Source of the DNA: Bacteroidota bacterium
Lineage (GTDB): Bacteria; Bacteroidota; Ignavibacteria; UBA10030
DNA: 64,000 bases
Assembly: GCA_035286705.1 (NCBI GenBank)
Contig: DATECW010000088.1
Span: 2,853 to 66,852 of the forward strand
Direction: 5' to 3'
The translations under genes and the position numbers were made by a program. The notes beneath the pieces are model-generated. The model worked only from the letters and a program-made list of their open reading frames with translations. It was not told where the DNA came from and ran no database searches. Numbering within the stretch: position 1 is the stretch's first letter; every line of letters starts with the position of its first letter. Positions 1,164-20,449 of this stretch are shown piece after piece.

Positions 1164-1589
1164 TCAATGCTTGTGGCCGTGAAAGTTGGGTTTCACTTTT
1201 TCTTTCGTCACGCCTGGAATGTCCTTACCCTCTCCAAGCTGCCATCCTGCATAGCAATCGGAACAAATACCTTTTCCCTCTCTCAAGTCCTTGTTGCAGG
1301 TGCAGCTCTGATGGTCCAGCGCGCATCGGTCACACGGCGCCTTTATGCAGCAGTTATAATACATCTCCTCTTTCGCTTCAGCAAGAAGCTCTTTTGCTTT
1401 CTGAACTTTCTCCTTCGCCGTGAGGCTGTCCGATTGTTTCTGAGACTTCGATTGAATGTTCTGCTGATCTGCCGCCGGTTTCGCAGTTTCCTGTTTCCCG
1501 TGGCCGGCATGCTTTTCCTGCGCAGTTGTCGTCGCGGAAAAAGCGACCGCTGCAATGACAATCAAACAAGCAATGATGATGCGCTGCAT
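1164..1589 (-). CDS. Secreted Cys-rich hypothetical protein with a His-rich C-terminus (HGHKH); possible metal binding
   Basis: N-terminal signal peptide. A Lys/Gln-rich linker, then a 12-Cys module (YYNCCIKAPCDRCALDHQSCTCNKDL...CSDCYAGW). No family recognised. Confidence 0.45.
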   Translation of the reverse strand: MQRIIIACLIVIAAVAFSATTTAQEKHAGHGKQETAKPAADQQNIQSKSQKQSDSLTAKEKVQKAKELLAEAKEEMYYNCCIKAPCDRCALDHQSCTCNKDLREGKGICSDCYAGWQLGEGKDIPGVTKEKVKPNFHGHKH

Positions 1590-1668
1590 AGCTCCTCCTT
1601 CAAGGTATTATTGGTTTGTGAACGGCGTGAATTCTCTTGTTTTTTCGTCGCTTCATGAGGCGACGATT

Positions 1669-2436
1669 TCAGCGCGTCAGTCTGTAAATCGCTACGTTTG
1701 TCCACAGACTGTTAAGGCGACCGGCAGCAAGTTGAGAGAGTCGAATATGCGCCAACAGTACCGGATGCTGAGGATCAACCGACACTTGCCCCAGACCCTG
1801 TTTGTCCGTTCTCACAACGGTCGTGTTCCGGTTCGTTATCACGCGAACCGGAGCATTGGAGACTGCCACACCTTCATAGAGCAACTGGAACTGAATGGTC
1901 GCCCGATCCTGCCCGGTATCCTTCCACGATTTCACCACTATCTCCAACGGCAATCCGAGCACTGAATCCTGCGGCGTATGAGAATCCGTTGCGACAACGA
2001 TCTTCATAATGCGGCTGTACGTTTCCCTGAATTCCTCAACGTGAGGCGTGAGGTAGTGTGACGCCTCTCTCTTTGTCAGTCCGATCTCTTCTCGTAGATA
2101 CTGTTCAGCCAGATCTCCTTTGAACGTGATCTCCCGCTGCTTCACACCCGTTGCAACGATCATGGTTGGCTCGGGAGGAAGCGAACCCAACAAGGTCGAA
2201 TCCGACGGGTCGCCTGCAAGGGCAATGGAGACGCCGGCGGGTAAATAGGCACGCGGGTCAACGAAGCGGTCAACACCTTTGATGGGCTCTCCATGCGGAA
2301 AATGCTCCGCAACAAGCGCAGAGATCGTGATCCGCGTCTTATCCTTGTTCCATTTCGCTGCGAGCCAGGCATCATGGGCATGAGCGGAAAGTGTGACAAG
2401 AACCATCACCACGACAGCACCGGAGACACGTTTCAT
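1669..2436 (-). CDS. Periplasmic DUF4198/COG5266 (CbiK-like) putative metal-binding protein
   Basis: Signal peptide ends ...LSAHA, with mature N-terminal His (HDAWL...) as in DUF4198 proteins. Size about 255 aa. Family assignment is from memory, not a search. Confidence 0.45.
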   Translation of the reverse strand: MKRVSGAVVVMVLVTLSAHAHDAWLAAKWNKDKTRITISALVAEHFPHGEPIKGVDRFVDPRAYLPAGVSIALAGDPSDSTLLGSLPPEPTMIVATGVKQREITFKGDLAEQYLREEIGLTKREASHYLTPHVEEFRETYSRIMKIVVATDSHTPQDSVLGLPLEIVVKSWKDTGQDRATIQFQLLYEGVAVSNAPVRVITNRNTTVVRTDKQGLGQVSVDPQHPVLLAHIRLSQLAAGRLNSLWTNVAIYRLTR

Positions 2437-2484
2437 GAAACCTCCCTTTCTAATGGTCCGACGAGTTTCTTTTCTTCCAAGAAC

Positions 2485-3216
2485 CTATTGCGCAACAGCC
2501 AGATGACGTTCTGTGTGTACTGACACATCATCGCTGAGCCTTCCATCTCTCAGGTAAATACATCGTTTTGCAAATCGAAGGTTTTCCGGATTGTGAGTTA
2601 CCATGATGATCGTGTGCCCTTCGGAATTCAGGCGTTGAAGAATCTTCATGATTTCATCGCTCGTCCCGGTATCCAGGTTCCCTGTCGGTTCGTCAGCAAG
2701 AACAATCGGCGGCTGATTCACAAGTCCACGCGCAATCGCAACCCGCTGCTGCTCCCCCCCGCTCAGCTCATCCGGAAGCCGAAATGCTTTTGAGCCCAAA
2801 CCGACATTTTCGAGAATCGCTTTTGCCATGATCTCTTGCTCATCGTTGTTGCGACCTGTGATGACCAATGGGATCATGACGTTCTCGAGAATGGTCAAAT
2901 ACGGCAACAATTGAAAGGACTGAAACACGAAGCCCAGATACTCACGGCGAAAATCCGCCCTGCGTTCGTCGCTCAACGAATACACATCAATGCCATCCAC
3001 AATGACCGACCCCTCAGACGGATGATTCAATCCACCCAGAATAGACAGGAGCGTGCTTTTACCGGAGCCTGACGGGCCCATGACCGCGACGAATTCTCCC
3101 TGAGCGATTTCAACCGAAACTCCGTCCAGCGCAGGGACGCACTCTTTACCGGTGTTATATGTTTTTTTCAATTGCTGAATCTGGACAAGGCTCATATTCT
3201 TCGTTCCATTGTTCAC
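2485..3216 (-). CDS. ABC transporter ATP-binding protein (MacB/LolD-type)
   Basis: Walker A GPSGSGKST, signature LSGGEQQRVAIARGL and Walker B ILADEPTGNLD. Confidence 0.9.
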   Translation of the reverse strand: MNNGTKNMSLVQIQQLKKTYNTGKECVPALDGVSVEIAQGEFVAVMGPSGSGKSTLLSILGGLNHPSEGSVIVDGIDVYSLSDERRADFRREYLGFVFQSFQLLPYLTILENVMIPLVITGRNNDEQEIMAKAILENVGLGSKAFRLPDELSGGEQQRVAIARGLVNQPPIVLADEPTGNLDTGTSDEIMKILQRLNSEGHTIIMVTHNPENLRFAKRCIYLRDGRLSDDVSVHTERHLAVAQ

Positions 3217-3229
3217 AAATTAAGAATGC

Positions 3230-4390
3230 CTACAATGCCTTTAGGGCGACCGTCGGATCGAGCCGCGACGCCTTATATGCAGGGTAGATACTTGAAACCA
3301 GTCCCACGGAAACAGCGAGCATTATCGAAAATGCAAACAATGCATAATCGGCTGACCAGCCGGCCGTCCCATTCACTGTCATCAATGGAGTTACCAACTG
3401 TGCAGCACCTGCACCGATGAAATATCCGCTCACCCCCGACAGAAAGCTCGTGAGAAATGCCTCCGTGAGAATGATCTTCATGACATGGGTTTGGCGGAAC
3501 CCGATGGCGCGGAAGATACCGATCTCCCTTGTTCGTTCATTCACGGACGCCATCATATTCGTGATAACAATAAGAGCTGCCACGAGGAGGACCACCCCGG
3601 AGATCCCATACGAGAAATGCTCAAACCGGTGCATCGCCTCCATTTTTGATTCAATCGTCTGACGAATGGCCACCACCTTCGCCCCGGGCAATTTCTCCGA
3701 TGTCTGGCGCACAATCTCCTCGATGGGACAGTCGTAACAGAGAGCCGCGACTTCGACGAGGCTCAATTCATCCGGTTTGCCGAACAATCGCTGGGCTTCC
3801 GCAAGATCAATGAATACAACGCCATCGTCTTGCGAACCGGTTGGTTCGAGGACCCCCGCAACGGTAAACGATTCTCCTTGGATCTCGAAAGACTGGTTCA
3901 AGTCGAGCCCGAGCGACTTCTTCGCGTCTGCTCCAATGATCGCCTGATCCTTCGTTGCCGGTCTCCGTCCAACCAACTTCCACCATTTCTTCAGTTGCAG
4001 TTCTTGATCGAACTCGACACCGACAACGAGGACGGTTCGGTCTATCACCTCGGTTATATTGAGAAGCTTCGGAGCGATGATCCTAATATTCTTGCTGTTC
4101 TCGATCGTGAGAATCTCCTGCGCGTCTTTTGTACGAAGCTGCTTCACATCCAAAGCAACGCCAGAGACCGCCATTCCACCGTAGTTCAGCGAGAGGTCAT
4201 CAGATTTTGGAGTGATGAGAATATTCGCTCCAAACTCGTCTAATTTGTTGGCAATATCTGCATTCATGATCCTGGCCACCGTAATGAGTGTGACAACCGT
4301 ACTGACGGCAATGGTTAGTCCAAGAACAAGAAAGAGCATCTTGGACTTTCGCCGTCGAAGATTGTTGAGCGAGATGTTGTAGAGTTTCAT
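3230..4390 (-). CDS. ABC transporter permease, FtsX/MacB family
   Basis: N-terminal TM helix, large periplasmic domain, three C-terminal TM helices. Size and topology fit FtsX-like permeases. Adjacent to the ABC ATPase. Confidence 0.8.
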   Translation of the reverse strand: MKLYNISLNNLRRRKSKMLFLVLGLTIAVSTVVTLITVARIMNADIANKLDEFGANILITPKSDDLSLNYGGMAVSGVALDVKQLRTKDAQEILTIENSKNIRIIAPKLLNITEVIDRTVLVVGVEFDQELQLKKWWKLVGRRPATKDQAIIGADAKKSLGLDLNQSFEIQGESFTVAGVLEPTGSQDDGVVFIDLAEAQRLFGKPDELSLVEVAALCYDCPIEEIVRQTSEKLPGAKVVAIRQTIESKMEAMHRFEHFSYGISGVVLLVAALIVITNMMASVNERTREIGIFRAIGFRQTHVMKIILTEAFLTSFLSGVSGYFIGAGAAQLVTPLMTVNGTAGWSADYALFAFSIMLAVSVGLVSSIYPAYKASRLDPTVALKAL

Positions 4391-4458: not shown

Positions 4459-5133
4459 TTAGATTCGCCTCTGCCACCGGACGACCAATTGCTCGTCGAT
4501 CTGAATTTCGTTCCCAGCGACGGTATTGGGGAGGGCGTCCGGCGGGTACTTCCCGCATGAACCACTCACCGGCTCGAGATCGTTCAACTCCCATGTCGAG
4601 CCGCAAGAGTTGCAAACCAGCTTGTCGCCCTTCATGTGGAACCGAGTCGAATTGCACGGTTCACACATGCTCACGGCTGTCACCACCTTTCCCTCGCCGG
4701 TGATATAGGCAAGAAGGGGTATATTGTTCAGTTCGGTGGAATACTGAAAGGCAATGAACTTCCGTTCCCTGAGCAGGTCGAGTGGTAGTATGATCTTTCG
4801 ATTCTCGACTTTTGCAGGGACATCGATCATCTGCTCTCCCGTCACACTGTAGCTCGCAGGCGAGACAATTGCTGGAGACGCCTTGATGACTGGGTTACCG
4901 CTCTCTGGAAGGTTGAAATATACCCAGCCGCCGAACACGGCAACAACTCCGAGCGCGATGAATATTTTCAACCGATTCTTGCCCGACGGTCTATGGTTTG
5001 CCACAACTCGGTCGTGTTTTTCCTGCCAAAGAGGTTTTGCCGGTTTCTTCCCGGTCAGTGAAGCTCCGCATCCGATGCAGAAGTTCGAATCAGGCTCGAG
5101 AGCCTTTCCACATTCTGAACAAAAGTTTGCCAT
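4459..5133 (-). CDS. Zinc-ribbon / TM / Cys-rich membrane protein (DUF2318-like)
   Basis: N-terminal CxxC...CxxC zinc ribbon (CSECG...CIGCG), one TM helix, C-terminal CEPCN...CNSCGS...CGKY motifs. Resembles the DUF2318 membrane proteins that accompany FtsX-type ABC transporters. Confidence 0.5.
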   Translation of the reverse strand: MANFCSECGKALEPDSNFCIGCGASLTGKKPAKPLWQEKHDRVVANHRPSGKNRLKIFIALGVVAVFGGWVYFNLPESGNPVIKASPAIVSPASYSVTGEQMIDVPAKVENRKIILPLDLLRERKFIAFQYSTELNNIPLLAYITGEGKVVTAVSMCEPCNSTRFHMKGDKLVCNSCGSTWELNDLEPVSGSCGKYPPDALPNTVAGNEIQIDEQLVVRWQRRI

Positions 5134-5168: not shown

Positions 5169-7361
5169 TTACAATCTTGCACTTACACCTATGACCGGAA
5201 GAAATGGAATGATTGTTAGTTGTTCTTTCGAAGAATACGTCTCATCCCACATGTAGTGCACGATGTTCTTTTGATTGTAGGCATTCAGTACTTCCAAATA
5301 GACATCGAGATCGAACGATGCAAATTGAAAATGTCGAGTTACACGAACGTCGAGTCGATTATATGCCGAATAACGATCCGAGTTATGGATGCCGGGAATG
5401 GGAAACCAGCGTTCTTCGTTCGGGTCGTACCAGGACGAAGCGACCGGTGTGTATGGCCTTCCGCTGCCATAGCGGAAGCGCAAACCGGCTTGCCAATGTT
5501 CCGAGAATTTGTAGTTTGAAACGACACTTATCAAGTGTGGCCGGTCAAAATCGAAAACGTGCAGATCGCTGTTTGTTCCTTCTCTCCGCTTTGACAGAGA
5601 ATAGGTGTACGACAACCAGCCGAAGAATCCTTGACCATTCTTGAGTTGAACGTAAGACTCTACGCCGCGTGAGTATCCGTCGCCATTATTGGAAAGATTC
5701 CAAAGCGAATCGATTGTAATGAGTCGAGAAAGATTCTTGTTGTACAGCTCAAGGCTCACCACCATTGCGTCACCCACCTCGTGCCTGATGCCGATGCCAT
5801 AGCTTTCAGCACGCTTGGATTTGAGATTGCTGTTGATATCCAGCTCAAACGGTCGTGGTGACTGATAATACCATCCGTAGCCTGCCGAAAGACTCATGTG
5901 TTCATTCCAGGCATAGGAAAGATTGAATCGCGGGGAGAACGTACTCTCCTTGCTTTTCGCAATGTAGTCATATCGAACACCAACGCTCGCACTTAGCGAT
6001 GGGGAGATGGTCCATCTGTCATCAACATAAAGTGAAGGCTTCATGGATGTTCCGGTTCCCCGAAGTTTTAGCTCGTTGAAGTTCAAGGCTATTTCGAGCG
6101 GGACATCAATGGTGACATCTTCCTTCTCTCGACCGAGCCATCCGCCGATATGCAGCTCATTTGCGGGAAAGATGACGGTGAAATCCTGCTTGAGCGTCCA
6201 TTCTTGAATGTTGTATGCTTCTACGGCATTACGCGGTTGAACGGAAGAGCTTTTCGCTTGACTCCATGAGACGATAAAATCCGAAAGAAAGAACTCGCCG
6301 AGCAGAGAGCGAAGGCGGCCTGTTACAACACCGCTTTTGTTTTCCCAGGAAAAATCTCCTGTGTAGTTGGGACGGTCAAAAAAACCGTACATCCGTTCTC
6401 TGGAGTAAAGCCCGGAGAAGGTCAATTTATGGTCTTGTGAAAGGTTGAAATCCACTTTTGAGTTAATATCAAAGAAGTACGGCAGCACGCTGTAATCGCT
6501 GGCAAGATCAGTATATTTGAGCAGCACGTCGAAATAACTCCGCCGGGCAGAGAGCATTGCTGTGCCATTGGCAAATGCGAGCGGCACTTCGACTGTTCCA
6601 CTCGCATCCGACATGCTGATCGATGCCTCGCCATTCAGCTTCTCCATATTGCCGGTCCGATTCTCAATCAACAACACCGAAGAGAGCCTATCACCATAGC
6701 GGGCAGGGAATCCCGCCGCATAGAACTCGACTTTCTCGACGAGTCGGGAGTTGAAAATGCTCCAGTAGCCGCCGCCCATCATATCGAAATGGAATGGGTT
6801 TCGGATTGTTGCGCCGTCGTACAGCACGAGATTTTCATCCGGACTTCCGCCGCGCACGTAGAGCTTTGAATTGTCACCATCGGATGCGATTCCTGGGAGT
6901 GTCTGAACCACCCAGAAGATATCCTGGGCGGAACCTGGTGTATTGACCACCATTTGTTTTCCGAGACGCGCTGTGATGCCGCTTGCATCGTAGCGCTCGG
7001 GTTTCGGTGTAATGACGATTTCTTCCGTTTCCAAAGCTGTTTCTTCCAGCAGCACGTCAATAACATTTTCCCCCTGTTTGATTCGAACGTTTGAAACGAG
7101 CTTCTCCTTGAAACCGATCATCGAAAATCTCACGGTATACGTTCCAATCGGGATATTTTGAATAGAGTAACGTCCCTGTGAATTTGTTGCAGATCCAATG
7201 TTCGTGCCCTTGAGAATAACGTTGACCAGCTCAAGCGGCTGCTTTGATCCCTTGTCCAGCACAACTCCTTCAAGACTGCCCGTTTGCGCTTGTGCGGGGA
7301 GACAAACGACTGTGAGTGCAAACAATAAGACCATTAGAGACGATTTCATTTTGTGTCTCAT
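5169..7361 (-). CDS. TonB-dependent outer-membrane receptor with N-terminal CarboxypepD_reg-like domain
   Basis: Signal peptide, then a CarboxypepD_reg-like region (GVVLD...QPLELVNVILKGTNIGSATNSQGRYSIQNIPIGTYTV), plug and about 22-strand barrel length. The start may be at the MKSSL Met (7349). Confidence 0.8.
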   Translation of the reverse strand: MRHKMKSSLMVLLFALTVVCLPAQAQTGSLEGVVLDKGSKQPLELVNVILKGTNIGSATNSQGRYSIQNIPIGTYTVRFSMIGFKEKLVSNVRIKQGENVIDVLLEETALETEEIVITPKPERYDASGITARLGKQMVVNTPGSAQDIFWVVQTLPGIASDGDNSKLYVRGGSPDENLVLYDGATIRNPFHFDMMGGGYWSIFNSRLVEKVEFYAAGFPARYGDRLSSVLLIENRTGNMEKLNGEASISMSDASGTVEVPLAFANGTAMLSARRSYFDVLLKYTDLASDYSVLPYFFDINSKVDFNLSQDHKLTFSGLYSRERMYGFFDRPNYTGDFSWENKSGVVTGRLRSLLGEFFLSDFIVSWSQAKSSSVQPRNAVEAYNIQEWTLKQDFTVIFPANELHIGGWLGREKEDVTIDVPLEIALNFNELKLRGTGTSMKPSLYVDDRWTISPSLSASVGVRYDYIAKSKESTFSPRFNLSYAWNEHMSLSAGYGWYYQSPRPFELDINSNLKSKRAESYGIGIRHEVGDAMVVSLELYNKNLSRLITIDSLWNLSNNGDGYSRGVESYVQLKNGQGFFGWLSYTYSLSKRREGTNSDLHVFDFDRPHLISVVSNYKFSEHWQAGLRFRYGSGRPYTPVASSWYDPNEERWFPIPGIHNSDRYSAYNRLDVRVTRHFQFASFDLDVYLEVLNAYNQKNIVHYMWDETYSSKEQLTIIPFLPVIGVSARL

Positions 7362-7365: not shown

Positions 7366-8295
7366 TTAGAATTTGCGCCCTCCGTACTTTTTTTCTACCT
7401 CATCGACTAGCTGCACGATAGTGTATGTGCCCTCGCGAATCTTGTCATCAACAAAAGTCTTGACCTCCTGTGCTCCGCGTGGATGAGCACAACTGCAGTC
7501 TTTCAGTTCATCAATGCCGCATTGACCGCACGGGCACGTGAAGCGTGAAAAGACTTCCACTCGATCCGCAATGGTTGCGGGCTTGGAGGTGTTGGAGATT
7601 CTTGAAGCTAAGGCGAACATCTCGCTTACCGGCTGTTTGGGTACCGTGAGCTTTGTCGATTGCCCTGTCGTGTGGGCAAGAGAATCGTAGCGAGAGGAAA
7701 GCGCGGACTTCATCCACCCGAACGTGTTATTGACGGCAAGTATGATTTCCTGCGATGATTTTCCGGATTGAAGGTTCGTCCTGATGAATTGCCGTTCCTG
7801 TATGGCGGTGTTGCACCGGCAGGTATCGAGAGGCTGTTCCCCACACGCTCCGCACGAACAAATGAATTGTGAGGCAATGTCCAGCACTTTCCTCTCCAAG
7901 GCCGCATCGCTGCTCTTCAACTCCACGAGAGAGGCTTGTGGTTCCGGTTTCCCCCGCTCACCACGCTCGTAGAGTACAACAATGAAGAGAATCCCGGCAG
8001 TCAACAAGATAAGACCGACTACTCCGGGACTCCGGCGCCATTTCGTATCGACTCGTCGATCCTTTTTCTTGTATCGCGCTTGTGCTGGAGCCAGTTGTCG
8101 AGGGTGATGAGCTCGTTCTTGCCGAATTTCGGAACCGCAATTTGCGCAGAACTTCGCCCCTGGAATGCTTTCAAAGCTGCATGTAGGGCATGGCCTCAAA
8201 TCATTTGCCTTCTCTGTTTTCCCAACCTCAATACCACAGTTCGCACAAAACTTTGTATTATCCCTGTTTTCCGCACCACATTCGTTGCACTTCAT
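7366..8295 (-). CDS. Membrane-anchored protein with an N-terminal double zinc ribbon and two C-terminal PCYCGC-like Cys modules
   Basis: MKCNECGAE...FCANCG and CPTCSF...FCANCG are two zinc ribbons. One TM helix follows. Then two repeats: FICSCGACGEQPLDTCRCN and FTCPCGQCGIDELKDCSCAH. Confidence 0.55.
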   Translation of the reverse strand: MKCNECGAENRDNTKFCANCGIEVGKTEKANDLRPCPTCSFESIPGAKFCANCGSEIRQERAHHPRQLAPAQARYKKKDRRVDTKWRRSPGVVGLILLTAGILFIVVLYERGERGKPEPQASLVELKSSDAALERKVLDIASQFICSCGACGEQPLDTCRCNTAIQERQFIRTNLQSGKSSQEIILAVNNTFGWMKSALSSRYDSLAHTTGQSTKLTVPKQPVSEMFALASRISNTSKPATIADRVEVFSRFTCPCGQCGIDELKDCSCAHPRGAQEVKTFVDDKIREGTYTIVQLVDEVEKKYGGRKF

Positions 8296-8315: not shown

Positions 8316-8666
8316 TCACTTCCTCGCTGTGAGTTTCTCAGCCTCTAATCCATCTCCAATCTGTCCTGAGACAAGTTCAACTTCAGCTCTCGTCTCATCA
8401 ACAAGACGCATAACCTTAACAATGCCGAGTTCTTGCTTGTGGGGCAAAGGGGCACTGGCGCCATGATTGTGTCCGCCGCTTGAGGTTGAAGGCTGATGAT
8501 ATTGGTAGAGAATAAAAAGGTCTCCCACTTTTACATCGGCTCCCTTGGAGAATTCGAGGTAGATCTCTTTCGGGAGGCCATCGACGACTTGAATCCGGTA
8601 CGATGTGCTGCATGAAGAAACAAATAAAGAAAGGACGGATAGAGTACCATATGCAAGATATTTCAT
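8316..8666 (-). CDS. Small lipoprotein with a His-rich insert; paralog of the 10324-10710 product
   Basis: Lipobox LFVSSC. VKVGDLFILYQY and IVKVMRLVDE...EVELVSGQIG blocks are shared with the 10324-10710 product. Carries a GGHNHGASAPLPH insert. Confidence 0.5.
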   Translation of the reverse strand: MKYLAYGTLSVLSLFVSSCSTSYRIQVVDGLPKEIYLEFSKGADVKVGDLFILYQYHQPSTSSGGHNHGASAPLPHKQELGIVKVMRLVDETRAEVELVSGQIGDGLEAEKLTARK

Positions 8667-9676: not shown

Positions 9677-9686
9677 GGCTTCCCTT

Positions 9687-11820: not shown

Positions 11821-12015
11821 TCATTCCTCCACGATCAGATCGTTTGCCGACGTATTGTCGTCCTTTCCCATTGCCTTTAGATATTTTGCAGGCTTTTCAA
11901 CAAACGAATGAAGACATCCCGGTGCACAAAAAAAATACGTTTGACCATCATAGAGAGCACTGCCCGCTGCAAATTCCTCATCAATCATCATTCCACAGAC
12001 AGGGTCTTTTTTCAT
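11821..12015 (-). CDS. Single YHS/TRASH-domain protein
   Basis: PVCGMMIDEE...TYFFCAPGC motif. 64 aa. Confidence 0.7.
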   Translation of the reverse strand: MKKDPVCGMMIDEEFAAGSALYDGQTYFFCAPGCLHSFVEKPAKYLKAMGKDDNTSANDLIVEE

Positions 12016-12893: not shown

Positions 12894-13232
12894 TTACTGT
12901 TGATTGTGTTGGTGGTTTGATTTTTCCTTCTTCGTGTCTTCAAGCATTTCCAAAACAATGCGGAGCATCCGCTTGTCATCTATCATGGCTCTGCACATTT
13001 CCGTCATCTTCATCGTATCGCCGACTGCGTAATAGATCATCTTCTTCATCATCGTTGCGTGCATCTGATTGTTAGAGGCAATATGGTCCATCAGCAAGTC
13101 CATCATCACTGAATCTTTCATCATCTCCATCATTTGCATGTGTTTGTGCTGTCCCAAAGCGAACGATGAGAGGGCAGTCAGGAGAGCCACAAGGAGGATC
13201 AAAGGTCTTATTTTCATAGTTTTTTTCTTCAT
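12894..13232 (-). CDS. Secreted Met-rich helical protein (SilE/PcoE-like metal sponge candidate)
   Basis: Signal peptide, about 25% Met in the mature part (HMQMMEMMKDSVMMDLLMDH...), His-rich C-terminus (NHQHNQQ). Located directly downstream of cusA. Confidence 0.45.
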   Translation of the reverse strand: MKKKTMKIRPLILLVALLTALSSFALGQHKHMQMMEMMKDSVMMDLLMDHIASNNQMHATMMKKMIYYAVGDTMKMTEMCRAMIDDKRMLRIVLEMLEDTKKEKSNHQHNQQ

Positions 13233-13235: not shown

Positions 13236-16200
13236 TTAGTCTTCTAGGAGCTGCCCTTCGGTGGCCAATTCCTTCTTCAAGCTCCAGCTCTTCCACAAAT
13301 AGTAGATGACGGGATAGACAGCGAGTTCCAGCAAGAAGGAAGATGTGAGACCGCCGACCATCGGGGCAGCGATGCGTTTCATAACATCCGCGCCGGTGCC
13401 CGTGCTCCACATGATCGGGAAGAGGCCGATCATGGTCGTCAACACGGTCATGAGCTTGGGCCGCACGCGCTGGACGGCCCCGTGGTGGATGGCCTCCCGC
13501 AGATGCTGCAAGCTTCTCATCTTGCCTTCTTTCTTCCACTGTTCATACGCTATGTCGAGGTAGAGAAGCATGATCACCCCCGTTTCCGCGTCCAGGCCGG
13601 CCAGTGCAATAATGCCCACCCAGACAGCGATACTCAGGTTATACCCGAGGATGTAGAGCAGCCAGAAGGCTCCGATGAGCGAGAACGGCACCGCCAAAAA
13701 CACTATTCCCACCTTGGTCATCGATCGCGTGCTGAGATAGAGCAGCACGAAGACGATGAAGAGCGTCAGGGGAATGACGAGCATCAGGCGCGTTTGCGCC
13801 CGCTCCATGTACTCGTACTGACCGCTCCAAATGATATTGTATCCCGCAGGCAGTTTTATCTTTTCTGCAACGGTTCGCTTCGCATTCTGTACGTATGTTC
13901 CGACATCGATGTCTTTGATGTCGACATAAACCCAGGCATTGGGACGCGTATCTTCACTTCGAACGACCATCGGACCTTTGCGGGGAGTGATCGTGGCAAG
14001 CTGACCGATCGGAATCTGTTCCCCTGTTGGCGTCGGGACGAGCACACGTTGAATCGCCTCGAGATCATCGCGGAGTTCGCGGCTATATCGCAGGTTGACA
14101 CTGTACCTTTCGAGGCCCTCCACCGTGTTTGTGATGCTCATTCCTCCCATTGCCGTCTGAATGACCATTTGCACATCGCCGACCGTCAAGCCGTAGCGGG
14201 CGGCCTCCCTGCGATCGATATCGAAATCAAGGTAGTTCCCGCCGACGGCCCGTTCGGCAAAGGCACTCAATGTGCCGGGAACGGTGCGCATGACGGACTC
14301 AACTTCTTTCCCTATTTCTTCCAACACTTTGAGATCGGGGCCGGCGATTTTGATCCCCACCGGAGTCTTAATCCCGGTGCTCAACATATCTGTGCGGGTT
14401 TTGATCGGCATCGTCCAGGCATTCGTCAGTCCCGGAAACTGGATAGCACGGTCCATCTCGTCGACCAGCTTCTCCACTGTCATGCCGGCGCGCCATTCAC
14501 TTTCTGGTTTAAGCATGATCGTCGTTTCGATCATATCCAGACCAGCGGGATCGGTCGCGGTCTCAGCGCGGCCGATCTTGCCGAACACATGATGCACTTC
14601 GGGAAATTGTCGAAGAATCTTGTCGGTTTGCTGAAGGAGCTCTCTTGCCTTTGTGATCGACATTCCCGGCAACGTTGTCGGCATATACAGGAGGTCACCT
14701 TCATACAGGGGCGGCATGAACTCAGAGCCAAGTTGGCTGTAAGGGAGATAAGTCACCACGAGGAGAGCCAGCGTCAGCCCGATCACCCATTTGTTATGCT
14801 TCAACACAAAATCGACAACAGGGTGATACAGCCTGATCAAGACCCGACTGAGAGGATGGCGTTCCTCCGACCGGATTTTTCCGCGAATCCAATATCCCAT
14901 CAGCACAGGAACGAGCGTGACCGCAAGAATGGCTGCGGCTCCCATGGCGTAGGTCTTGGTAAAGGCAAGCGGTTTGAACAGCCGGCCTTCTTGCGCTTCC
15001 AGGGTAAAGACGGGAAGGAACGAAATGGTGATGATAGCCAGAGAAAAGAACAACGAGGGACCTACTTCCTTGGCTGCATCCAATATCACTTGCCAGTGTT
15101 CCTTGCGCTGTGCCGGGGGTTTCTCATGCTCGCGTTCAAGATGCTTATGACCATTCTCGACCATGATGATAGCGGCATCAACCATGGCTCCGATGGCGAC
15201 AGCGATTCCACTCAGTGACATGATGTTCGCGTTAATGCCCTGCATTTTCATGACAATGAAGGAGATCAAGACTGCCGTCGGCAGTGTAATGATCACGACA
15301 AATGAACTCCGGGCATGCAAGAGGAACGCAATAATCACGAGAGCCACAACAACCATCTCTTCAATGAGGCTTTCGGTGAGCGTATCAATGGCTCGCTCAA
15401 TGAGGCTTGACCTGTCGTAGGCCATCTCGATTTTCACGTCCTCCGGCAACCCTTGCTTCAGGCCTTCTAACTTTTTCTTCACGTTCTCGATTACTTCCAG
15501 GGCGTTCTGGCCATATCGCATCACAATAATGCCGCCGACGACTTCGCCTTCGCCGTTGCTTTCGGCAAGACCACGGCGCATCAGAGGTCCAATCGTCACG
15601 TCCGCAACATCCGCCACGTACACTGGAGTGCCGCTTTTCTTGTCCACCATAAGCGGGATGTTCTTGACATCATCAACGGACTTTATATATCCAAGGCCCC
15701 GCACCATGAACTCCATCTCACTCATTTCGATAACTTCACCGCCAACGTCGTTGTTGGAGTTTTTGATTGCCATCTCAACCATATTGAGCGGGATGTTATA
15801 GGCTAAGAGCTTTGTCGGATCGACCGTTACCTGATACTGTTTGACAAATCCACCGATGCTTGCTACCTCTGCGACTCCTTCAACGGCCGTGAGTTCGTAT
15901 TTGAGATACCAATCCTGGTATGACCGAAGCTCCTGCAGCGAGCGCTTATCGGATGTGAGTGTATACATAAAGACCCAGCCTACGCCGGTTGCATCCGGTC
16001 CCAGTGCGGGAACAACGTTCGGAGGAAGACGCTTCTGTGCATAGTTCAGGTATTCTAGGACCCGACTACGGGCCCAGTAGAGATCGGTTCCGTCCTCGAA
16101 GATGACGTAGACCAAGGAATAGCCGAAGAACGAATAGCCACGCACAACTTTGGATCCCGAAACAGAGACCATTGCGGTGGTGAGTGGATAGGTCACCTGG

Positions 16201-16388
16201 TCTTCCACAATGCGTGGAGATTGACCCGGATACTCGGTATAAATGATCACCTGGACGTCGCTCAAATCGGGGATCGCATCAATCGGAATGCTCAGCATCG
16301 AATAGACACCCCAACCGATAAGAAAGAGCACCGCGAGAATGACCATGAACTTATTTCGAATCGACGCTTCAATGATTTTTTCTAACAT
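13236..16388 (-). CDS. cusA: Heavy-metal efflux RND transporter, CusA/CzcA (HME) family
   Basis: 1050 aa, 12-TM RND layout, the long antisense ORF typical of HME pumps, and adjacent adaptor and OMF genes. Cu/Ag specificity is inferred from the surrounding Met-rich/HMBD proteins. Confidence 0.9.
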   Translation of the reverse strand: MLEKIIEASIRNKFMVILAVLFLIGWGVYSMLSIPIDAIPDLSDVQVIIYTEYPGQSPRIVEDQVTYPLTTAMVSVSGSKVVRGYSFFGYSLVYVIFEDGTDLYWARSRVLEYLNYAQKRLPPNVVPALGPDATGVGWVFMYTLTSDKRSLQELRSYQDWYLKYELTAVEGVAEVASIGGFVKQYQVTVDPTKLLAYNIPLNMVEMAIKNSNNDVGGEVIEMSEMEFMVRGLGYIKSVDDVKNIPLMVDKKSGTPVYVADVADVTIGPLMRRGLAESNGEGEVVGGIIVMRYGQNALEVIENVKKKLEGLKQGLPEDVKIEMAYDRSSLIERAIDTLTESLIEEMVVVALVIIAFLLHARSSFVVIITLPTAVLISFIVMKMQGINANIMSLSGIAVAIGAMVDAAIIMVENGHKHLEREHEKPPAQRKEHWQVILDAAKEVGPSLFFSLAIITISFLPVFTLEAQEGRLFKPLAFTKTYAMGAAAILAVTLVPVLMGYWIRGKIRSEERHPLSRVLIRLYHPVVDFVLKHNKWVIGLTLALLVVTYLPYSQLGSEFMPPLYEGDLLYMPTTLPGMSITKARELLQQTDKILRQFPEVHHVFGKIGRAETATDPAGLDMIETTIMLKPESEWRAGMTVEKLVDEMDRAIQFPGLTNAWTMPIKTRTDMLSTGIKTPVGIKIAGPDLKVLEEIGKEVESVMRTVPGTLSAFAERAVGGNYLDFDIDRREAARYGLTVGDVQMVIQTAMGGMSITNTVEGLERYSVNLRYSRELRDDLEAIQRVLVPTPTGEQIPIGQLATITPRKGPMVVRSEDTRPNAWVYVDIKDIDVGTYVQNAKRTVAEKIKLPAGYNIIWSGQYEYMERAQTRLMLVIPLTLFIVFVLLYLSTRSMTKVGIVFLAVPFSLIGAFWLLYILGYNLSIAVWVGIIALAGLDAETGVIMLLYLDIAYEQWKKEGKMRSLQHLREAIHHGAVQRVRPKLMTVLTTMIGLFPIMWSTGTGADVMKRIAAPMVGGLTSSFLLELAVYPVIYYLWKSWSLKKELATEGQLLED

Positions 16389-16429: not shown

Positions 16430-18130
16430 TTAGTGCTGTTGGTCGTCTGGCACGTACTTCTCAGGGCTCTTCTTAAACTTCTCCAAGTCATCATCGCTGC
16501 AGAAAAAGTAGGTCTTCCCTTTGTGCATGTACGATCGTTCCTTGTCGGGTGTAATTGTCATTCCACAAACAGGATCTACCACAGTTTCAGGAACCACGGC
16601 CATCGTATCGACGTCATTGTGATCCTGCGCCCGAGGTTTTTCCTGATTCATTTCGTGACCCGCATGTTCCGCCGATTTCAGCGTCTCCTGTCCTTTCTTC
16701 GCCTCTTGTTGCTCCATGGGTTTCCCTGCCCGCCCGGAAGAATCCCCTGTGGCGGGCGGGGACATGTCATGCCCCTCGTGTCCCCGCATCAAGCCCACAG
16801 CTGCCTTGAGGTTGCTTTCGGAATCAATAAGGAATTGAGACGAAGTGACTATTTTCTCACCCTCTTTGATCCCGTCGAGAACCTGGACGTAACCGTCGGC
16901 CATCACCCCGAGTCGTATTTCACGCGGATCAAAGTAGCCTCCGCCCAGAGCTATCACGGCAATATTGCGTTCGCCTGATCGAATGATGGCCTGATTCGGA
17001 ATGGCCACCGCATCGACAGCAACGGGAGATATAATCTTCACCGTCGCAAACATTTCCGGTTTCAAGTCGAGACTCGCGGTGTTGCTGACAACCACGCGCA
17101 CCTTCGCTGTTTTTGTTTCCATATTGAGGGTGGGATAGACGTACGTAATCGTCCCTCGAAACGTTTTTCCGGGCAGATAGGAAAGTTCCACATTCGCCTG
17201 TTGCCCAACTTTTACCCACGGCAACTCGTACTGGTAGATGTCCGCAAGAACCCACAGCGTGGAAAGATCGGCAATCTTATAGAGGTCCATCCCCGCCATG
17301 ACATTCTGCCCTTTAAAAACCATTTTCTCCATGACGATCCCCTCAACGGGCGAGTAGATTGTCATCGTTTTCCTGGGCGATCCGCGCTTTTCGAGCTGCT
17401 GGATCTCAGACTCGGAAATGTCCCAATACAGAAGCCTGCGCTTTGCACTCTCGATAAGTTCATCTGCACCTGTGCGTGCCTCTTCAATACTGCTTTGCTG
17501 CAACTGTTTTCTGTATCGAATTGCTTGCAAGTATTCTTCCTGTGTTGAGACCAGTTCGGGGCTGTATAACTCCATCAAGGGATCCCCTTTTTGAACAACC
17601 TTGCCAGTGTAATCAACGTGAAGCTTCTCCACCCATCCCATGATTTTCGTGTTGACTGAATACACCTTCGTCTCGTCAAAATCGACCTTCCCGACTGCTC
17701 GAATGACTTTGCTGAGTTTCCTCCGTTCGACCGTTGCAATCTTGACGCCAATATTCTGGACGGTCACAGGATCGATTTTGATTCCCTTCGAATCGCCTTG
17801 ACCTTCGTAGACCGGCACCAAATCCATTCCGCAATCAGGGGCTTTCCCCGGCTTGTCGGAAGTGTACCACGGGTGCATCGGATCTCTGTAGAAGGCGATT
17901 GTTTTTTCGCCTGATGTGCCCGACGATTCATCGTAGACCGGGACGAAGTCCATACCATCAGCGGCTTTCTTCGGTGTTGGAGATGTTATTTGAGGACTCA
18001 TCGGGTCACGATAGTAAAGGATCTTCCTTTCCGATGAAGAGTTTCCTGCGTCCGAAGGGCGAAATGCCAACCAGCCTGCCCCCAGACCGATTACGAGACT
18101 CAAAACTGCTATCACGGCGATGCGTTTCAT
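16430..18130 (-). CDS. cusB: Efflux RND periplasmic adaptor (CusB/CzcB family) with N-terminal HMBD repeats and C-terminal YHS/TRASH domain
   Basis: N-terminus has YYRDPMSPQ...GMDFVPVY and FYRDPMHPWYTSDKPGKAPDCGMDLVPVY. Central barrel/lipoyl/MP domains. C-terminus has VCGMTITPDKERSYMHKGKTYFFCSDDD (YHS). Confidence 0.85.
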   Translation of the reverse strand: MKRIAVIAVLSLVIGLGAGWLAFRPSDAGNSSSERKILYYRDPMSPQITSPTPKKAADGMDFVPVYDESSGTSGEKTIAFYRDPMHPWYTSDKPGKAPDCGMDLVPVYEGQGDSKGIKIDPVTVQNIGVKIATVERRKLSKVIRAVGKVDFDETKVYSVNTKIMGWVEKLHVDYTGKVVQKGDPLMELYSPELVSTQEEYLQAIRYRKQLQQSSIEEARTGADELIESAKRRLLYWDISESEIQQLEKRGSPRKTMTIYSPVEGIVMEKMVFKGQNVMAGMDLYKIADLSTLWVLADIYQYELPWVKVGQQANVELSYLPGKTFRGTITYVYPTLNMETKTAKVRVVVSNTASLDLKPEMFATVKIISPVAVDAVAIPNQAIIRSGERNIAVIALGGGYFDPREIRLGVMADGYVQVLDGIKEGEKIVTSSQFLIDSESNLKAAVGLMRGHEGHDMSPPATGDSSGRAGKPMEQQEAKKGQETLKSAEHAGHEMNQEKPRAQDHNDVDTMAVVPETVVDPVCGMTITPDKERSYMHKGKTYFFCSDDDLEKFKKSPEKYVPDDQQH

Positions 18131-18152
18131 TACTTGGCTCCTTGAATATCCG

Positions 18153-19448
18153 TTATTGAACTTGTGCTGAGATTTCCGAGATGTCCATGCCGACAGCCTG
18201 CTCGAGCTGGGCCTGACTTGCCATATGGCTCATAACTGACATGTAATAATCGAGCTTGGCCATCAGAAGCATGCGATAGGCATCGATGAGCATGAGAAAC
18301 TCCGTCTTTCCGGTTTGGTATGCCGCGACAGTCGATTGCAGGGTCTGTTCTGCCTGCGGGATGACAGTGTTCTTGTACAAGAGCACCAGATTCTGATTTG
18401 TTTGAACCTTTACAAGAGCATCCTGAACCTCAAACAAGGTCATGTTTTTCATAGCGGTAAGATCTTCCTCGGCCTTCCTTACATTCAGTGCGTTTTCATC
18501 AGTCTTCGACGTATATTTTCCGCTCGACCACGGAGTCAAGGGAATGCTGATTCCAAGCATTGCCGACCAGAAATCGTTTTTGGTCATGGCCATGTCCTTG
18601 TACATGAAACGCAGCATCAGATCGGGGAAATATTCCTTTTTCGAAAGCGAGAGTTCAGATTTGTTCATTTCGATGTTAAAATTCATCGCTTTCAGTTCCG
18701 GACGAGATTCGAGGGCTAGAGGTCGAATTTGCTCAAACGTCCAGCGTGGAATATCCTTCTCAATTTCAGGTACGAACCCGAGCGGTGCATTTGCTGGACG
18801 ACTCAGGATTGTGTTAATCATCGATTCGATGACCGCACGCTCCTTTTGCAGATTGAGACCATCATTGATAAGCGTGGACAACTCTGTTTGTGCGCGCAAG
18901 ATATCGGGCTGCTTCCCCATCCCAACTTCGTATTGTTTTAAGGCGATATCGACAAACCGGCGCATGAGGTCCTGATTTTCTGCATTGATCTGAATTTTGC
19001 GCTGCACGAGGTAGAGCTCAAAGTACGATGACTTGAGTTCGCGAAGAACTTTTCGCTCTAACGCATTATATCCCTGATCCATCATATTGGCGTTGTTTTC
19101 CGCTGCCTTGCCCATATCAGAAAGCTTCCCCGGGAATGGAAACATTTGCTGTATGAAATAGTCCATTTCCATTTGATTTTTGAGCGGATTGGGAAATGAC
19201 TGAACTGGCGTCTGAAAGAACTCGACGCCGAATTGTGGCGCATCCCAGGATGTCACTTGATCAACGCGGGTTCTCGCGGCCGCGGTTTGATGCCGGGCAG
19301 CGCGAAGCTGAGGATTGTTTTCGAGCGCCTCCTTCACAAGTCCATCAAGACGAAGGGGCTTCTTCTCTTCTTGTGAGAAAGCCTGGTAAGTGACGAGAAC
19401 CGCCATCAAGAAGAAAACGAGAGAACGGAAGAATCGGAACATGGGCAA
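18153..19448 (-). CDS. cusC: TolC-family outer-membrane efflux protein (CusC/CzcC)
   Basis: Signal peptide, two-repeat helical OEP architecture, 431 aa, directly upstream of the adaptor. Confidence 0.85.
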   Translation of the reverse strand: MPMFRFFRSLVFFLMAVLVTYQAFSQEEKKPLRLDGLVKEALENNPQLRAARHQTAAARTRVDQVTSWDAPQFGVEFFQTPVQSFPNPLKNQMEMDYFIQQMFPFPGKLSDMGKAAENNANMMDQGYNALERKVLRELKSSYFELYLVQRKIQINAENQDLMRRFVDIALKQYEVGMGKQPDILRAQTELSTLINDGLNLQKERAVIESMINTILSRPANAPLGFVPEIEKDIPRWTFEQIRPLALESRPELKAMNFNIEMNKSELSLSKKEYFPDLMLRFMYKDMAMTKNDFWSAMLGISIPLTPWSSGKYTSKTDENALNVRKAEEDLTAMKNMTLFEVQDALVKVQTNQNLVLLYKNTVIPQAEQTLQSTVAAYQTGKTEFLMLIDAYRMLLMAKLDYYMSVMSHMASQAQLEQAVGMDISEISAQVQ

Positions 19449-19566
19449 CTCCTTGTTGAGAAAGAATGATCTCTTTCGTTACCTCACGTGGAAAACATGA
19501 GGAAAGCACACCCGTATCCTTGGGATAGAGGAATCCCCGGATTAGGGTAATTACAAGGAGAAGCTG

Positions 19567-19995
19567 TTAGATAAGAAAGGAAGAGTTGAGAATGTGTTTC
19601 CCCACCGGCGACAAGAACGATGCCTCGGTGCGGGAATCAGAACGGCTGGAGGAAAGGGAAGAGAACGAAATATCTGAAAAAAGACTGACGACAAGAGTCG
19701 CCGCTCTTTGAACCTTGCTGATTTTGTCTTTTTCGACTATTGCCTGCTTAACAGCCAGACCGCCAATAATACTATTCGTATGGCACGCTTGGTCAGATTC
19801 AAACGATGCGCCAGCCTTCGGCGCTGAGTTCTGGTTGCATTCATCCTCATTCATGCGATCAGGTATTGCGCAGCATGCCATTTGCTGCTGCAACCTGCAT
19901 TCATGAAGAATAGTCGTAAAACCAGAGCTCGCCAGTACAAAAACAAAGAGCACAACAACGTGCAAGCTCGCGTTATAATGAAGAATTTTTCTCAT
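19567..19995 (-). CDS. Hypothetical membrane-anchored Cys-containing protein at the head of the metal operon
   Basis: One N-terminal TM helix, then HECRLQQQMACCAIPDRMNEDEC. No recognised family. Start chosen at MRKIL. Confidence 0.35.
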   Translation of the reverse strand: MRKILHYNASLHVVVLFVFVLASSGFTTILHECRLQQQMACCAIPDRMNEDECNQNSAPKAGASFESDQACHTNSIIGGLAVKQAIVEKDKISKVQRAATLVVSLFSDISFSSLSSSRSDSRTEASFLSPVGKHILNSSFLI

Positions 19996-20449
19996 GGTGG
20001 TGAAATTATCAACATTCATGCCAGGCTAACTCGAAATAAAATCAGGAATAATTCTTTGAAAGTCAATAGTATTTGAAGCCGCTATTCTCGAATCTGAAAA
20101 TTCATGAGTACTTCTGATTCCTACTCTTGAGAACCCAATGACCTTTACGATCTGCTTAAAACATACGGCGCCAGGCCGGAAAAAGCGTTATAGATAATTG
20201 ACAAATGTTTATATTTTGTCGCGTGCATCACCCGTGTGCGTCATTTGCGCGGTTCTTTGAACGATCTATCCCCTGCCTCCTGCGCTCTTCAAAGGCTTGT
20301 AAGGAAGAATTCCAAAGACAAGAAAGCAGATCCCGGGGCGTACGAGAAGCTCGATGAATGCTGCAAGCTGCCTGAGGATCGGGAGTAGTCGCACCGGCGG
20401 TGGATCGGCTCATGCTCGTACGGACGGCGAGTATCGAGCTCTTGTCTGC

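Follow-up and report, generated by a model that had tools for sequence, protein, structure and literature searches.

The window analysed here, 64,000 nucleotides of contig DATECW010000088.1 from a bacterium of the class Ignavibacteria (assembly GCA_035286705.1), carries between positions 1164 and 20019 a tightly packed gene cluster made up of a CusCBA pump and about 16 poorly characterised metal-binding and envelope proteins, all on one strand. We consider it fairly probable that this is a sigma-54-controlled, class-conserved cluster for detoxification of Cu(I)/Ag(I) in the cell envelope, in which CusCBA is joined by non-homologous periplasmic metal binders, a FetABCD-like module, several lipoproteins and a P-II-like transducer. 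Models of copper resistance have come almost wholly from Proteobacteria and Firmicutes; here a class of widespread, mostly uncultured bacteria combines the standard CusCBA with accessory proteins that differ and are far more numerous, and the cluster is apparently under sigma-54 control.

The cluster consists of 20 open reading frames on the minus strand, with no credible plus-strand gene among them, as judged from the list of reading frames and their translations. The identical 20-gene set comes out of gene calls made independently on near-identical metagenome contigs. The run of 20 minus-strand genes from 20019 down to 1164 described in an earlier note on this DNA is thereby borne out. That note put the gaps at 90 bp or less; the largest, between the lead gene and cusC, is actually 118-124 bp, and every other intergenic gap is 79 bp or less. 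Its impression of an unusually dense set of Cu/Ag-type accessory genes holds as well, the cluster being unusually rich in HMBD, YHS and Met-, His- and Cys-rich proteins.

The pump is encoded by three adjacent genes:

18153..19442, minus strand: cusC-type outer-membrane factor (Pfam OEP, E 2.9e-43)
16430..18130, minus strand: cusB-type periplasmic adaptor (HlyD_D23, E 9e-81; HMBD, E 4.7e-14; YHS, E 2.3e-13)
13236..16388, minus strand: cusA, Cu(I)/Ag(I)-type HME-RND pump (TIGR00914, 1207.5 bits vs. a cut-off of 701)

The predicted product of 13236-16388 is a CusA-type Cu(I)/Ag(I) HME-RND transporter. It aligns over its full length with E. coli CusA (3k07/3t51; 1228 bits), all three residues of the E. 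coli Met triad, M573/M623/M672, are kept (phmmer alignment to 3t51_A, chain numbering +7), the GAMVDAAI stretch in transmembrane helix 4 is conserved, and the OEP and HlyD_D23 genes lie directly upstream. The cusCBA genes reported earlier are thus genuine by OEP, HlyD_D23, TIGR00914 and the Met triad. Orthologues of the cusC product are 72-78% identical in most of the syntenic loci described below. The adaptor scores 161 bits against E. coli CusB and passes the generic RND_mfp model TIGR01730 (116 bits vs. a cut-off of 94.9), while staying below the cut-off of the CusB-specific NCBIfam model NF007303 (193.6 bits vs. 390). Its N-terminal DPM-x-P...GMD motif is duplicated, the second copy being read as HMBD by Pfam, and a YHS domain is found at the C-terminus. 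The N-terminal DPMHP...DCGMD aligns with DPMYP...FMDMD of E. coli CusB, the stretch that presumably holds the metal ligands M49/M64/M66, with one Met replaced by Cys and the motif duplicated.

A scan of a genome collection with an alignment of the cluster's P-II-like fusion protein returned 37 loci, almost all of them in metagenome-assembled genomes (MAGs) of the class Ignavibacteria, and gene order was compared by tblastn of all 20 cluster proteins against the related loci (given L numbers below). At least 10 different GTDB species representatives share the co-directional order, and the P-II-like fusion in them is 36-58% identical. In a first arrangement (L010, L012-L015, L017 and L019-L022) the order is lead gene, cusC, cusB, cusA, (Met-rich), HMBD, YHS and P-II-like fusion, then (lipoprotein A, lipoprotein B), tandem YHS, YtkA-like, lipoprotein C, CcmH-like, (TonB receptor), FtrD-like, FtsX, ABC and (Cys-rich). 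In a second, found in the Melioribacter-type loci L028-L040, it is cusCBA, CcmH-like, (TonB receptor), FtrD-like, FtsX, ABC, YHS and a small stand-alone P-II-like protein. In L008 and L009 the P-II-like fusion lies beside P-type ATPases instead of Cus.

This is a lineage-conserved chromosomal cluster and not a strain-specific acquisition, since the same gene order is syntenic across the class. The term "island" used for it previously does not fit: GC content is 0.48-0.53 within the cluster and 0.49-0.55 in the rest of the window, the sole tRNA gene of the window is at 60.9 kb, about 41 kb away, and no integrase or transposase was found among the 20 flanking and other window reading frames scanned against Pfam. 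An origin in a mobile element was rejected because of composition, flanks and synteny.

The head of the cluster, on which the proposed mode of control depends, comprises the lead gene and three upstream elements:

19567..19995, minus strand: lead gene, a 142-aa Cys-rich protein with a single transmembrane helix (from orthologue alignment; no Pfam or NCBIfam match)
20009..20023, minus strand: sigma-54-like promoter element TGGCATGAATGTTGA (TGGCAT-N5-TTGA)
20187-20194, minus strand: putative activator site TCTATAAC, a T(C/T)TGTAAC-like direct repeat
20198-20205, minus strand: putative activator site TTTGTCAA, a T(C/T)TGTAAC-like direct repeat

The lead protein belongs to a family of only 8 clusters, is encoded first in the cluster in 9 loci, and has conserved HxC, CC, C, CH and VGGL motifs and a C-terminal SVEKYVLNxSFLI. 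Its longest reading frame opens at the ATG at 20019 (150 aa), inside the conserved TGGCATG, and the orthologues align from the ATG at 19995 (MRKILHY...). As the ATG at 20019 falls within the promoter-like element, translation probably begins at 19995, giving a product of 142 rather than 150 amino acids.

In element TGGCATGAATGTTGA the GG at -24, the TTG at -12 and the spacing between them are those of sigma-54 promoters, with A in place of the canonical C at -12. No other intergenic sequence in the 64 kb matches YGGCAYN5TTGV (5 matches on both strands vs. 1.87 expected, the other 4 being intragenic). TGGCAY-N5-TTG is present at 9 of 9 orthologous cluster heads, in surroundings that cannot be aligned, and precedes the ATG of the lead gene by 12-35 nt in L009/L016, L010, L012, L013, L015, L019, L020 and L021, a distance that implies very short leaders. 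The repeats TTTGTCAA and TCTATAAC are about 165-180 bp upstream of the element, and paired T(C/T)TGTAAC-like repeats recur 170-250 bp upstream of it in L010, L012, L019 and L021; they are putative activator sites. The element and the paired repeats are all that is conserved upstream of the orthologous lead genes.

An alternative that concerns the promoter only would make TGGCAY-N5-TTG an operator bound by some repressor or activator, or a signal of the translation-initiation region, with a housekeeping-sigma promoter further upstream. The missing C at -12, the unusual nearness to the ATG and the lack of any sigma-54 or activator gene in the window fit such a role. We nevertheless hold it to be unlikely: the -24 GG and the TTG keep exactly the spacing of the sigma-54 consensus in all nine heads, amid sequence that has otherwise diverged beyond alignment; the upstream repeats stand at a distance typical of enhancer sites; and in L041 and L042 NtrC-type activators are encoded directly upstream.

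The last observation also bears on how the cluster might be regulated. It had been noted that no cognate regulator is present, and indeed domain scans found no helix-turn-helix, MerR, response-regulator or histidine-kinase domain in any cluster protein, so that none of the 20 has a DNA-binding regulator domain. The suggestion that control falls to the P-II-like fusion or to the lead protein is not upheld, as neither has a DNA-binding domain; both could at most act post-translationally or as accessory sensors. The window's only two-component genes (39.1-42.7 kb), a PAS-GAF kinase and two receiver-only proteins about 19 kb away, were considered and rejected as a local regulator. Among relatives, NtrC-type activators are encoded in L028, L041 and L042; in L041 and L042 a histidine kinase and an NtrC-type activator lie directly upstream of a similar element, which precedes cusC in L041 and the CcmH-like and P-II-like genes in L042. 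From these two loci a remote activator appears probable here. Housekeeping genes lie upstream of the cluster in L010, L012, L015 and L020, which makes the lack of a local regulator a shared trait of the first arrangement. The absence of a regulator is probably best explained by the conserved sigma-54-like promoter and upstream repeats together with a remote NtrC-type activator. A literature search on sigma-54-controlled cus operons, or on this Ignavibacteria cluster, found nothing relevant.

The cluster is probably transcribed as one long unit or a few. No intergenic gap in it holds a terminator-like hairpin with a T-run, and the numbers of sigma-70-type promoters and intrinsic terminators are not clearly above shuffled expectation, with none at an informative junction. 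Positions 1-22000 (cluster and leader) gave no match to a riboswitch or other known RNA in Rfam at E <= 0.1. The gap before the P-II-like gene (11742-11820) contains GGAGCTAGC twice and the gap before the FtsX gene (4391-4458) a CCCGC...GCGGG hairpin, neither with a T-run; such repeats and hairpins could have a part in processing or stability, or act as regulatory sites within the cluster.

One member of the cluster is a protein that may connect metal sensing with transporter control:

10707..11741, minus strand: membrane-anchored P-II-like protein, 344 aa (AlphaFold2 model, pLDDT 78)

The model shows a beta-alpha-beta-beta-alpha-beta domain (residues 2-77), a first transmembrane helix at about 117-134, a periplasmic four-helix bundle, a second transmembrane helix at about 301-320 and a short helical, HAMP-AS1-like C-terminal tail (weak HAMP match, E 0.009). 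All 50 PDB matches listed by Foldseek are canonical P-II, GlnB or GlnK proteins (E about 2e-4, TM-score 0.55-0.75), which makes the earlier description as a P-II-like fusion right at the level of the fold. A GTxG...DH..FV stretch in the domain resembles the B-loop. A phmmer search with the domain found 32 proteins in 1.84 billion (1.84e9) representatives, mostly short and stand-alone or of about 330-345 aa, and the fusion has about 50 homologue clusters, all named ones of which come from Ignavibacteria/Bacteroidota MAGs. From the named clusters and the 37 genome loci, the family appears to be tiny and confined to Ignavibacteria-type MAGs. As the fold matches P-II, yet the Pfam family PF00543 is not reached (scores below) and the relatives number only 32, we regard the domain as a separate small lineage that is P-II-like in fold.

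In the periplasmic part E173, H176, H255 and M259 are invariant, with E173/H176 and H255/M259 near the membrane-distal ends of helices 1 and 4 of the bundle; going by helix topology alone, the four could form a candidate metal site. In the loci, a YHS gene lies 107 bp or less upstream of 23 of the 46 P-II-like domains. Several relatives encode extra paralogues beside the fusion (L010 10758-12491, L013 11109-12307, L014 7531-8729, L017 8687-8917 and 12425-13120, L021 11097-11387), in the form of a small stand-alone P-II-like gene and a second protein that resembles the transmembrane and bundle part, so that the two halves of the fusion also exist as separate genes. In a 1146-aa protein of the representative library (P0205) the P-II-like domain is matched five times over, in separate stretches, a hint that this rare domain can also occur in multi-repeat form. 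L007 (6142-6486) and L009 (735-1073) have canonical PF00543 P-II genes (112-114 aa) beside RND pumps; these metal clusters thus contain P-II-fold proteins of two different kinds.

Between the pump genes and the P-II-like gene, downstream of the latter and at the far end of the cluster are the small metal-binding and envelope proteins:

12894..13232, minus strand: secreted helical protein rich in Met (about 20 of the roughly 85 residues of the mature form, from the sequence)
12037..12879, minus strand: secreted protein with HMBD, a Met/His-rich linker and, at the C-terminus, a YtkA/FixH-like beta domain (HMBD, E 1.7e-16)
11821..12015, minus strand: 64-aa YHS protein with no signal peptide (YHS, E 3.3e-13), immediately upstream of the P-II-like gene
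10324..10710, minus strand: lipoprotein A, 128 aa (lipobox AFGGC; weak FlgT_C match, E 0.15)
9687..10313, minus strand: lipoprotein B, 208 aa (53-74% identity across loci; AlphaFold2 model, pLDDT 82)
9368..9721, minus strand: tandem YHS protein with no signal peptide (YHS in two stretches, E 8.3e-20)
8681..9337, minus strand: lipoprotein with a YtkA-like beta-sandwich and a C-terminal transmembrane helix (YtkA, E 0.0023, sub-threshold)
8316..8666, minus strand: lipoprotein C, 116 aa, with an HxH loop (lipobox FVSSC; H66 and H68 conserved)
1164..1589, minus strand: secreted Cys-rich protein with nine conserved Cys, H93 and a C-terminal HxH (no HMM match)

Alignments from the related loci have Met, His or Cys among the conserved positions of every accessory family, and several of the small Met-, His- and Cys-rich proteins are candidate Cu(I)/Ag(I) binders. 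The Met-rich protein, proposed here on its sequence to be a periplasmic Cu(I) buffer or chaperone, keeps 11 Met as well as H50 and C80 over 8 homologues, and its gene also directly follows cusA in L010, L012, L017 and L021. Of its earlier designation as SilE-like, the Met-rich composition stands and the family membership does not, as it has no Pfam or NCBIfam match; nor does any other cluster protein match a SilE, PcoE or CusF model in these collections. HMM scans likewise gave no family match for the lead protein, three lipoproteins or the Cys-rich tail protein. The Cys-rich protein, with C80, C81, C86, C89, C96, C98, C109 and C112 among its conserved residues, has homologues near the cluster end in L009, L012 and L020 and elsewhere within the locus in L008 and L025. 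In L009 (16311-16835) its domain is fused to HMBD in a 174-aa protein, which supports a metal-binding role.

The HMBD protein with its Met/His-rich segment was correctly recognised earlier, as the Pfam match confirms. Its C-terminal part gives sub-threshold YtkA (E 0.0012) and FixH (E 0.013) matches and has conserved His and Met residues. In the YtkA-like lipoprotein, found in 14 of 39 distinct related loci, the lipobox C16 and H88, H93, H118, H152 and M184 are conserved. An Ig-like module supposedly shared by these two proteins is not seen beyond the parallel sub-threshold YtkA matches (E 0.0012 and 0.0023), BLASTP giving E 0.007 over 28 residues and profile-profile comparison with hhalign an insignificant probability of 2.4%.

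D4, C7, C30 and C34 of the 64-aa YHS protein, which is probably cytoplasmic, are kept in 52 homologues, and in the tandem protein the D/C/C/C sets of both repeats are conserved. An Asp and three Cys are the ligand set proposed for the copper site of a YHS sensor domain (PMC4626032), with which the cluster YHS proteins agree. Three YHS/TRASH genes, one of them tandem, had been counted; the stand-alone genes are two, the tandem one included, and the third YHS is the C-terminus of CusB. The tandem reading frame shares 35 nt with the end of the lipoprotein B gene (window 9676-9721), and it may really begin at an internal Met (MIRDIVCGMD, about 9676) directly ahead of the first YHS repeat.

Lipoproteins A and C are indeed paralogous, as had been supposed (BLASTP E 4e-6; hhalign probability 99.8%, E 1.6e-29). 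Among the accessory proteins of the cluster, lipoprotein B shows the highest conservation, and its model finds GNA1162 (E 4e-8), PelC, FlgT, LpoB and CsgG in Foldseek, from which it is predicted to have a GNA1162/PelC/LpoB/FlgT-type fold. In addition to the lead-gene start, the analysis corrects the automated labels "nitrogen regulatory protein PII" and "TolB-like".

The remaining genes, before the Cys-rich one, are as follows:

7366..8295, minus strand: cytoplasmic double zinc ribbon (DZR, E 1.5e-9), one transmembrane helix and two periplasmic CcmH-like domains
5169..7361, minus strand: TonB-dependent receptor with N-terminal CarboxypepD_reg (Pfam Plug, TonB_dep_Rec_b-barrel, CarbopepD_reg_2)
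4459..5133, minus strand: zinc ribbon, transmembrane helix and periplasmic DUF2318/FtrD-like five-Cys domain (FtrD-like, PF10080, E 3.2e-22)
3230..4390, minus strand: MacB/FtsX-type ABC permease (FtsX, E 3.6e-23; MacB_PCD, E 3.1e-16)
2485..3195, minus strand: ABC ATPase, partner of the FtsX permease (ABC_tran, E 1.9e-34; start as in the L002 gene calls)
1669..2436, minus strand: secreted DUF4198 protein (DUF4198, E 3.3e-12)

Each CcmH-like domain of the first of these contains CxCGxC-x7-CxC, and all 18 Cys are kept in 23 homologues. CcmH (PF03918) is matched by the first domain alone (28.0 bits vs. a cut-off of 25); the whole protein scores 23.7 and the second domain has no match. The protein had been called a PCYCGC-like double-zinc-ribbon protein: the zinc ribbon is confirmed, and CcmH is matched in place of PCYCGC, a family that gives no Pfam match even at E <= 5 on the isolated domains. 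The five Cys of the FtrD-like protein (C157, C160, C174, C177 and C193) are kept in 25 homologues. The TonB-dependent receptor is an optional member, occupying the identical slot between the CcmH-like and FtrD-like genes in L021, L029 and L032 and absent from most relatives. An OprC-like copper receptor was considered for it and dropped, its sole PDB sequence matches being weak ones to the ferric enterobactin receptors FepA/PfeA, with none of the copper type. The DUF4198 gene was found by tblastn in 0 of 39 related loci and is specific to this genome.

This end of the cluster had been described as an uptake-like module, which is doubtful: the block is stable in the copper clusters of relatives, some of which lack the TonB receptor and none of which has DUF4198. 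The CcmH-like, DUF2318, FtsX and ABC genes with YHS match the parts list of the Fet system, lack FetM and FetP and sit in a copper-efflux cluster, all of which argues against simple uptake; by analogy, this suggests that FetABCD-like modules handle periplasmic thiol/metal chemistry.

The same genes are central to the view that the run is a mosaic of adjacent independent units, the first for Cus efflux (from the lead gene to about the YHS gene), the second a lipoprotein/sensor unit and the third for metal acquisition (CcmH-like, TonB receptor, DUF2318, FtsX/ABC, DUF4198 and Cys-rich), which would import iron, zinc or chelated metal. TonB-dependent receptors, like DUF4198 proteins, typically occur in uptake loci, and growth under iron limitation depends on FetABCDEF (PMC10783030). 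Small hairpins in the 68-79 bp gaps that precede the P-II-like, FtsX and Cys-rich genes are possible markers of unit borders, the TonB receptor, DUF4198 and Cys-rich genes vary across relatives, and the different order in Melioribacter-type loci, with the FtrD/FtsX/ABC block directly after cusA, speaks for modularity. We think such a mosaic rather unlikely all the same. The CcmH-like/FtrD/FtsX/ABC genes stay with the cus, YHS and P-II-like genes, on the same strand, in about 25 loci from different genera; Pfam scans show no Ftr1/FetM permease and no P19/FetP protein in the cluster; the Cys-rich tail protein is fused in a relative to HMBD, a copper-cluster domain; and the sole conserved promoter-like element sits at the head of the cluster. 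FtsX/MacB-type permeases are also not known as classical importers.

A further possibility, which we regard as very improbable, is that the cluster supplies copper to cuproenzymes: the TonB receptor would let the metal in, the HMBD, YHS, YtkA-like and Cys-rich proteins would escort it to periplasmic or membrane enzymes for insertion, and CusCBA would be no more than an overflow valve. The YtkA/FixH-like and CcmH-like families are known from cytochrome-oxidase and cytochrome c maturation, and domains of both kinds are found here, the matches being weak or barely exceeding the cut-off. At 28.2-33.3 kb, a distance of 8 kb, there is a System I cytochrome c maturation (ccm) cluster, and P-type ATPases take the place of Cus beside the P-II-like fusion in L008 and L009. 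Against such a role, Pfam scans find no cuproenzyme gene (nosZ, cox/cco or multicopper oxidase) in or beside the cluster, the efflux pump is the dominant conserved partner of the accessory genes, and most relatives are without the TonB receptor; moreover, as the Sil and Pco systems illustrate, Met-rich sponge-like proteins suit detoxification better than enzyme maturation. The neighbouring ccm cluster (28167-33327) encodes CcmE, a CcmC-like protein, CcmB, CcmA and an unusually long CcmF of 785 aa; no reading frame scanned within it matches CcmH, and within the window, CcmH-like domains were seen solely in the 7366-8295 protein.

Returning to envelope detoxification under sigma-54 control, the parts could work together as follows. 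Transcription would start at the sigma-54-type promoter overlapping 20009-20023, switched on by an NtrC-family activator encoded elsewhere and bound at the repeats about 170 bp upstream. Buffering of periplasmic Cu(I) and its transfer to CusB/CusA would fall to the secreted Met-rich, HMBD/Met-His-rich, YtkA-like and Cys-rich proteins, which would functionally stand in for the absent CusF and SilE. The cytoplasmic YHS proteins may report cytosolic copper and, with the periplasmic four-helix bundle, signal to the P-II-like domain, which would contact a transporter directly and thereby tune it, in the manner of GlnK and AmtB. The CcmH-like/DUF2318/FtsX/ABC block may act as a FetABCD(EF)-type, ATP-driven periplasmic machine for thiol and metal handling, keeping Cys sites reduced or extracting Cu(I) at the inner-membrane surface, and the PelC/GNA1162-like lipoprotein B, with the small partner lipoproteins, may form an envelope scaffold.

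Several points weigh against this picture. To the non-canonical -12 element of the promoter, which reads TTGA, TTGG or TTGT in place of TTGC, and its position only 12-35 nt from the start codon, must be added that no rpoN or activator gene was found in the 64-kb window (tblastn with an NtrC-type activator gave no AAA+ region). A single 19-kb transcript without internal promoters is unlikely. In the P-II-like domain PF00543 reaches 12.2 bits (E 0.24) against a cut-off of 25, with only the first 32 residues aligned, and the model has about 7 residues between strands 2 and 3 where the T-loop is expected, and no C-terminal segment. The TonB receptor and the DUF4198 protein suit import better than export, and the C. 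jejuni Fet module serves iron acquisition, not copper resistance. Finally, we infer all functions beyond domain identity from the sequence.

A bolder view, and one we hold to be quite improbable, is that the 344-aa protein represents a new class of transmembrane signal transducer: the Glu/His/His/Met set of its bundle would sense envelope copper and, with the adjacent YHS protein, drive the P-II-like domain, which would gate a metal transporter by direct binding. By analogy with GlnK and AmtB this would be a post-translational switch for metal efflux, and the transporter could be CusA, a P1B-ATPase or the FtsX/ABC unit. It would follow, as a corollary, that FetABCD-type DUF2318/ABC modules are machines for handling copper. 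FetP (P19) is a copper-binding protein, and the corollary, if true, would explain why the Campylobacter Fet system, with YHS in its FetA, needs such modules.

Of the neighbouring genes, the flanks include a CbiX-like gene (on the plus strand), a 289-aa gene of no known kind and trehalose genes. The last are directly upstream on the same strand (window 21496-25701) and comprise an OtsA-OtsB fusion (Glyco_transf_20 and Trehalose_PPase), a TreT-type trehalose synthase and DUF5752. At 25864-28088, 6-8 kb from the cluster, are genes for a diadenylate cyclase of the CdaA type (DAC domain) and a protein of the DHH family. Some P-II-like proteins, such as SbtB, bind c-di-AMP (PMC8654305); there is no evidence of a link between this cyclase and the P-II-like protein of the cluster.

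With E. coli CusCFBA the cluster shares the tripartite order of outer-membrane factor, membrane-fusion protein and RND pump, the full-length similarity of CusA, and the conserved core and N-terminal metal-motif region of CusB. In contrast to the E. coli system it has no CusF and no adjacent CusRS, its adaptor has the duplicated N-terminal motif (HMBD) and a C-terminal YHS, a Cys-rich membrane protein is encoded before cusC and sixteen more same-strand genes follow, and the putative promoter is of the sigma-54 type rather than CusR-dependent and sigma-70. As with SilE, PcoE and CusF, small secreted Met/His-rich proteins are encoded beside a Cu/Ag RND pump, and a role in buffering or chaperoning Cu(I)/Ag(I) is plausible; there is, however, no sequence-family relationship, and several unrelated folds occur here (helical Met-rich, HMBD plus beta-sandwich, Cys-rich). 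ZraSR of E. coli is a sigma-54-dependent, metal-responsive two-component system. Systems of the ZraSR type resemble the present one as metal-stress envelope operons with a -24/-12 promoter and an NtrC-family response regulator, a layout also seen in L041 and L042, but here no activator is encoded beside the cluster and the -12 element is non-canonical.

The lipoprotein B model matches the GNA1162, PelC, LpoB and FlgT-N lipoproteins (Foldseek E 4e-8 to 1e-6), while identity is 9-20%, the polysaccharide, curli, flagellar or penicillin-binding-protein context of that group is missing, and the conserved His and Cys are specific to the lipoprotein B family. For the P-II-like protein the nearest precedent is PII-NG. 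PMC7726332, citing Sant'Anna 2009, places P-II-family genes in czcABC-type clusters (GSU2134 of Geobacter), with their function untested. A P-II-fold protein encoded in a heavy-metal RND cluster and a proposed role in metal signalling are common to both; the present protein differs in missing PF00543, in its shortened T-loop region and in its fusion to two transmembrane helices, a four-helix bundle and a HAMP-like stub.

In Campylobacter jejuni, FetA combines DUF2318 with YHS, FetB and FetC are ABC permeases, FetD is the ATPase and FetE and FetF are thiol oxidoreductases; together they support FetMP-dependent iron acquisition by a biochemical mechanism that is unknown (PMC10783030). Common to FetABCDEF, the downstream half of fetMP-fetABCDEF, and the present block are a DUF2318 five-Cys protein next to an ABC transporter with permease and ATPase as separate genes, periplasmic thiol-active partner proteins and an association with YHS domains. 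Unlike the Fet cluster, the present one has no FetM (Ftr1-type) or FetP (P19) domain in its proteins or immediate flanks. Its DUF2318 protein has one transmembrane helix and a zinc ribbon, FetA eight transmembrane helices and a fused YHS, which is here in separate genes; one FtsX/MacB-type permease gene is present rather than two (the text of PMC10783030 names neither FtsX nor MacB for those of Fet), and CcmH-like five-Cys domains are found where Fet has FetE and FetF, both thioredoxins. The Fet genes belong to an iron-uptake cluster and the block described here to one for copper efflux, which supplies a genetic context for the unexplained FetABCD/DUF2318 module of pathogens.

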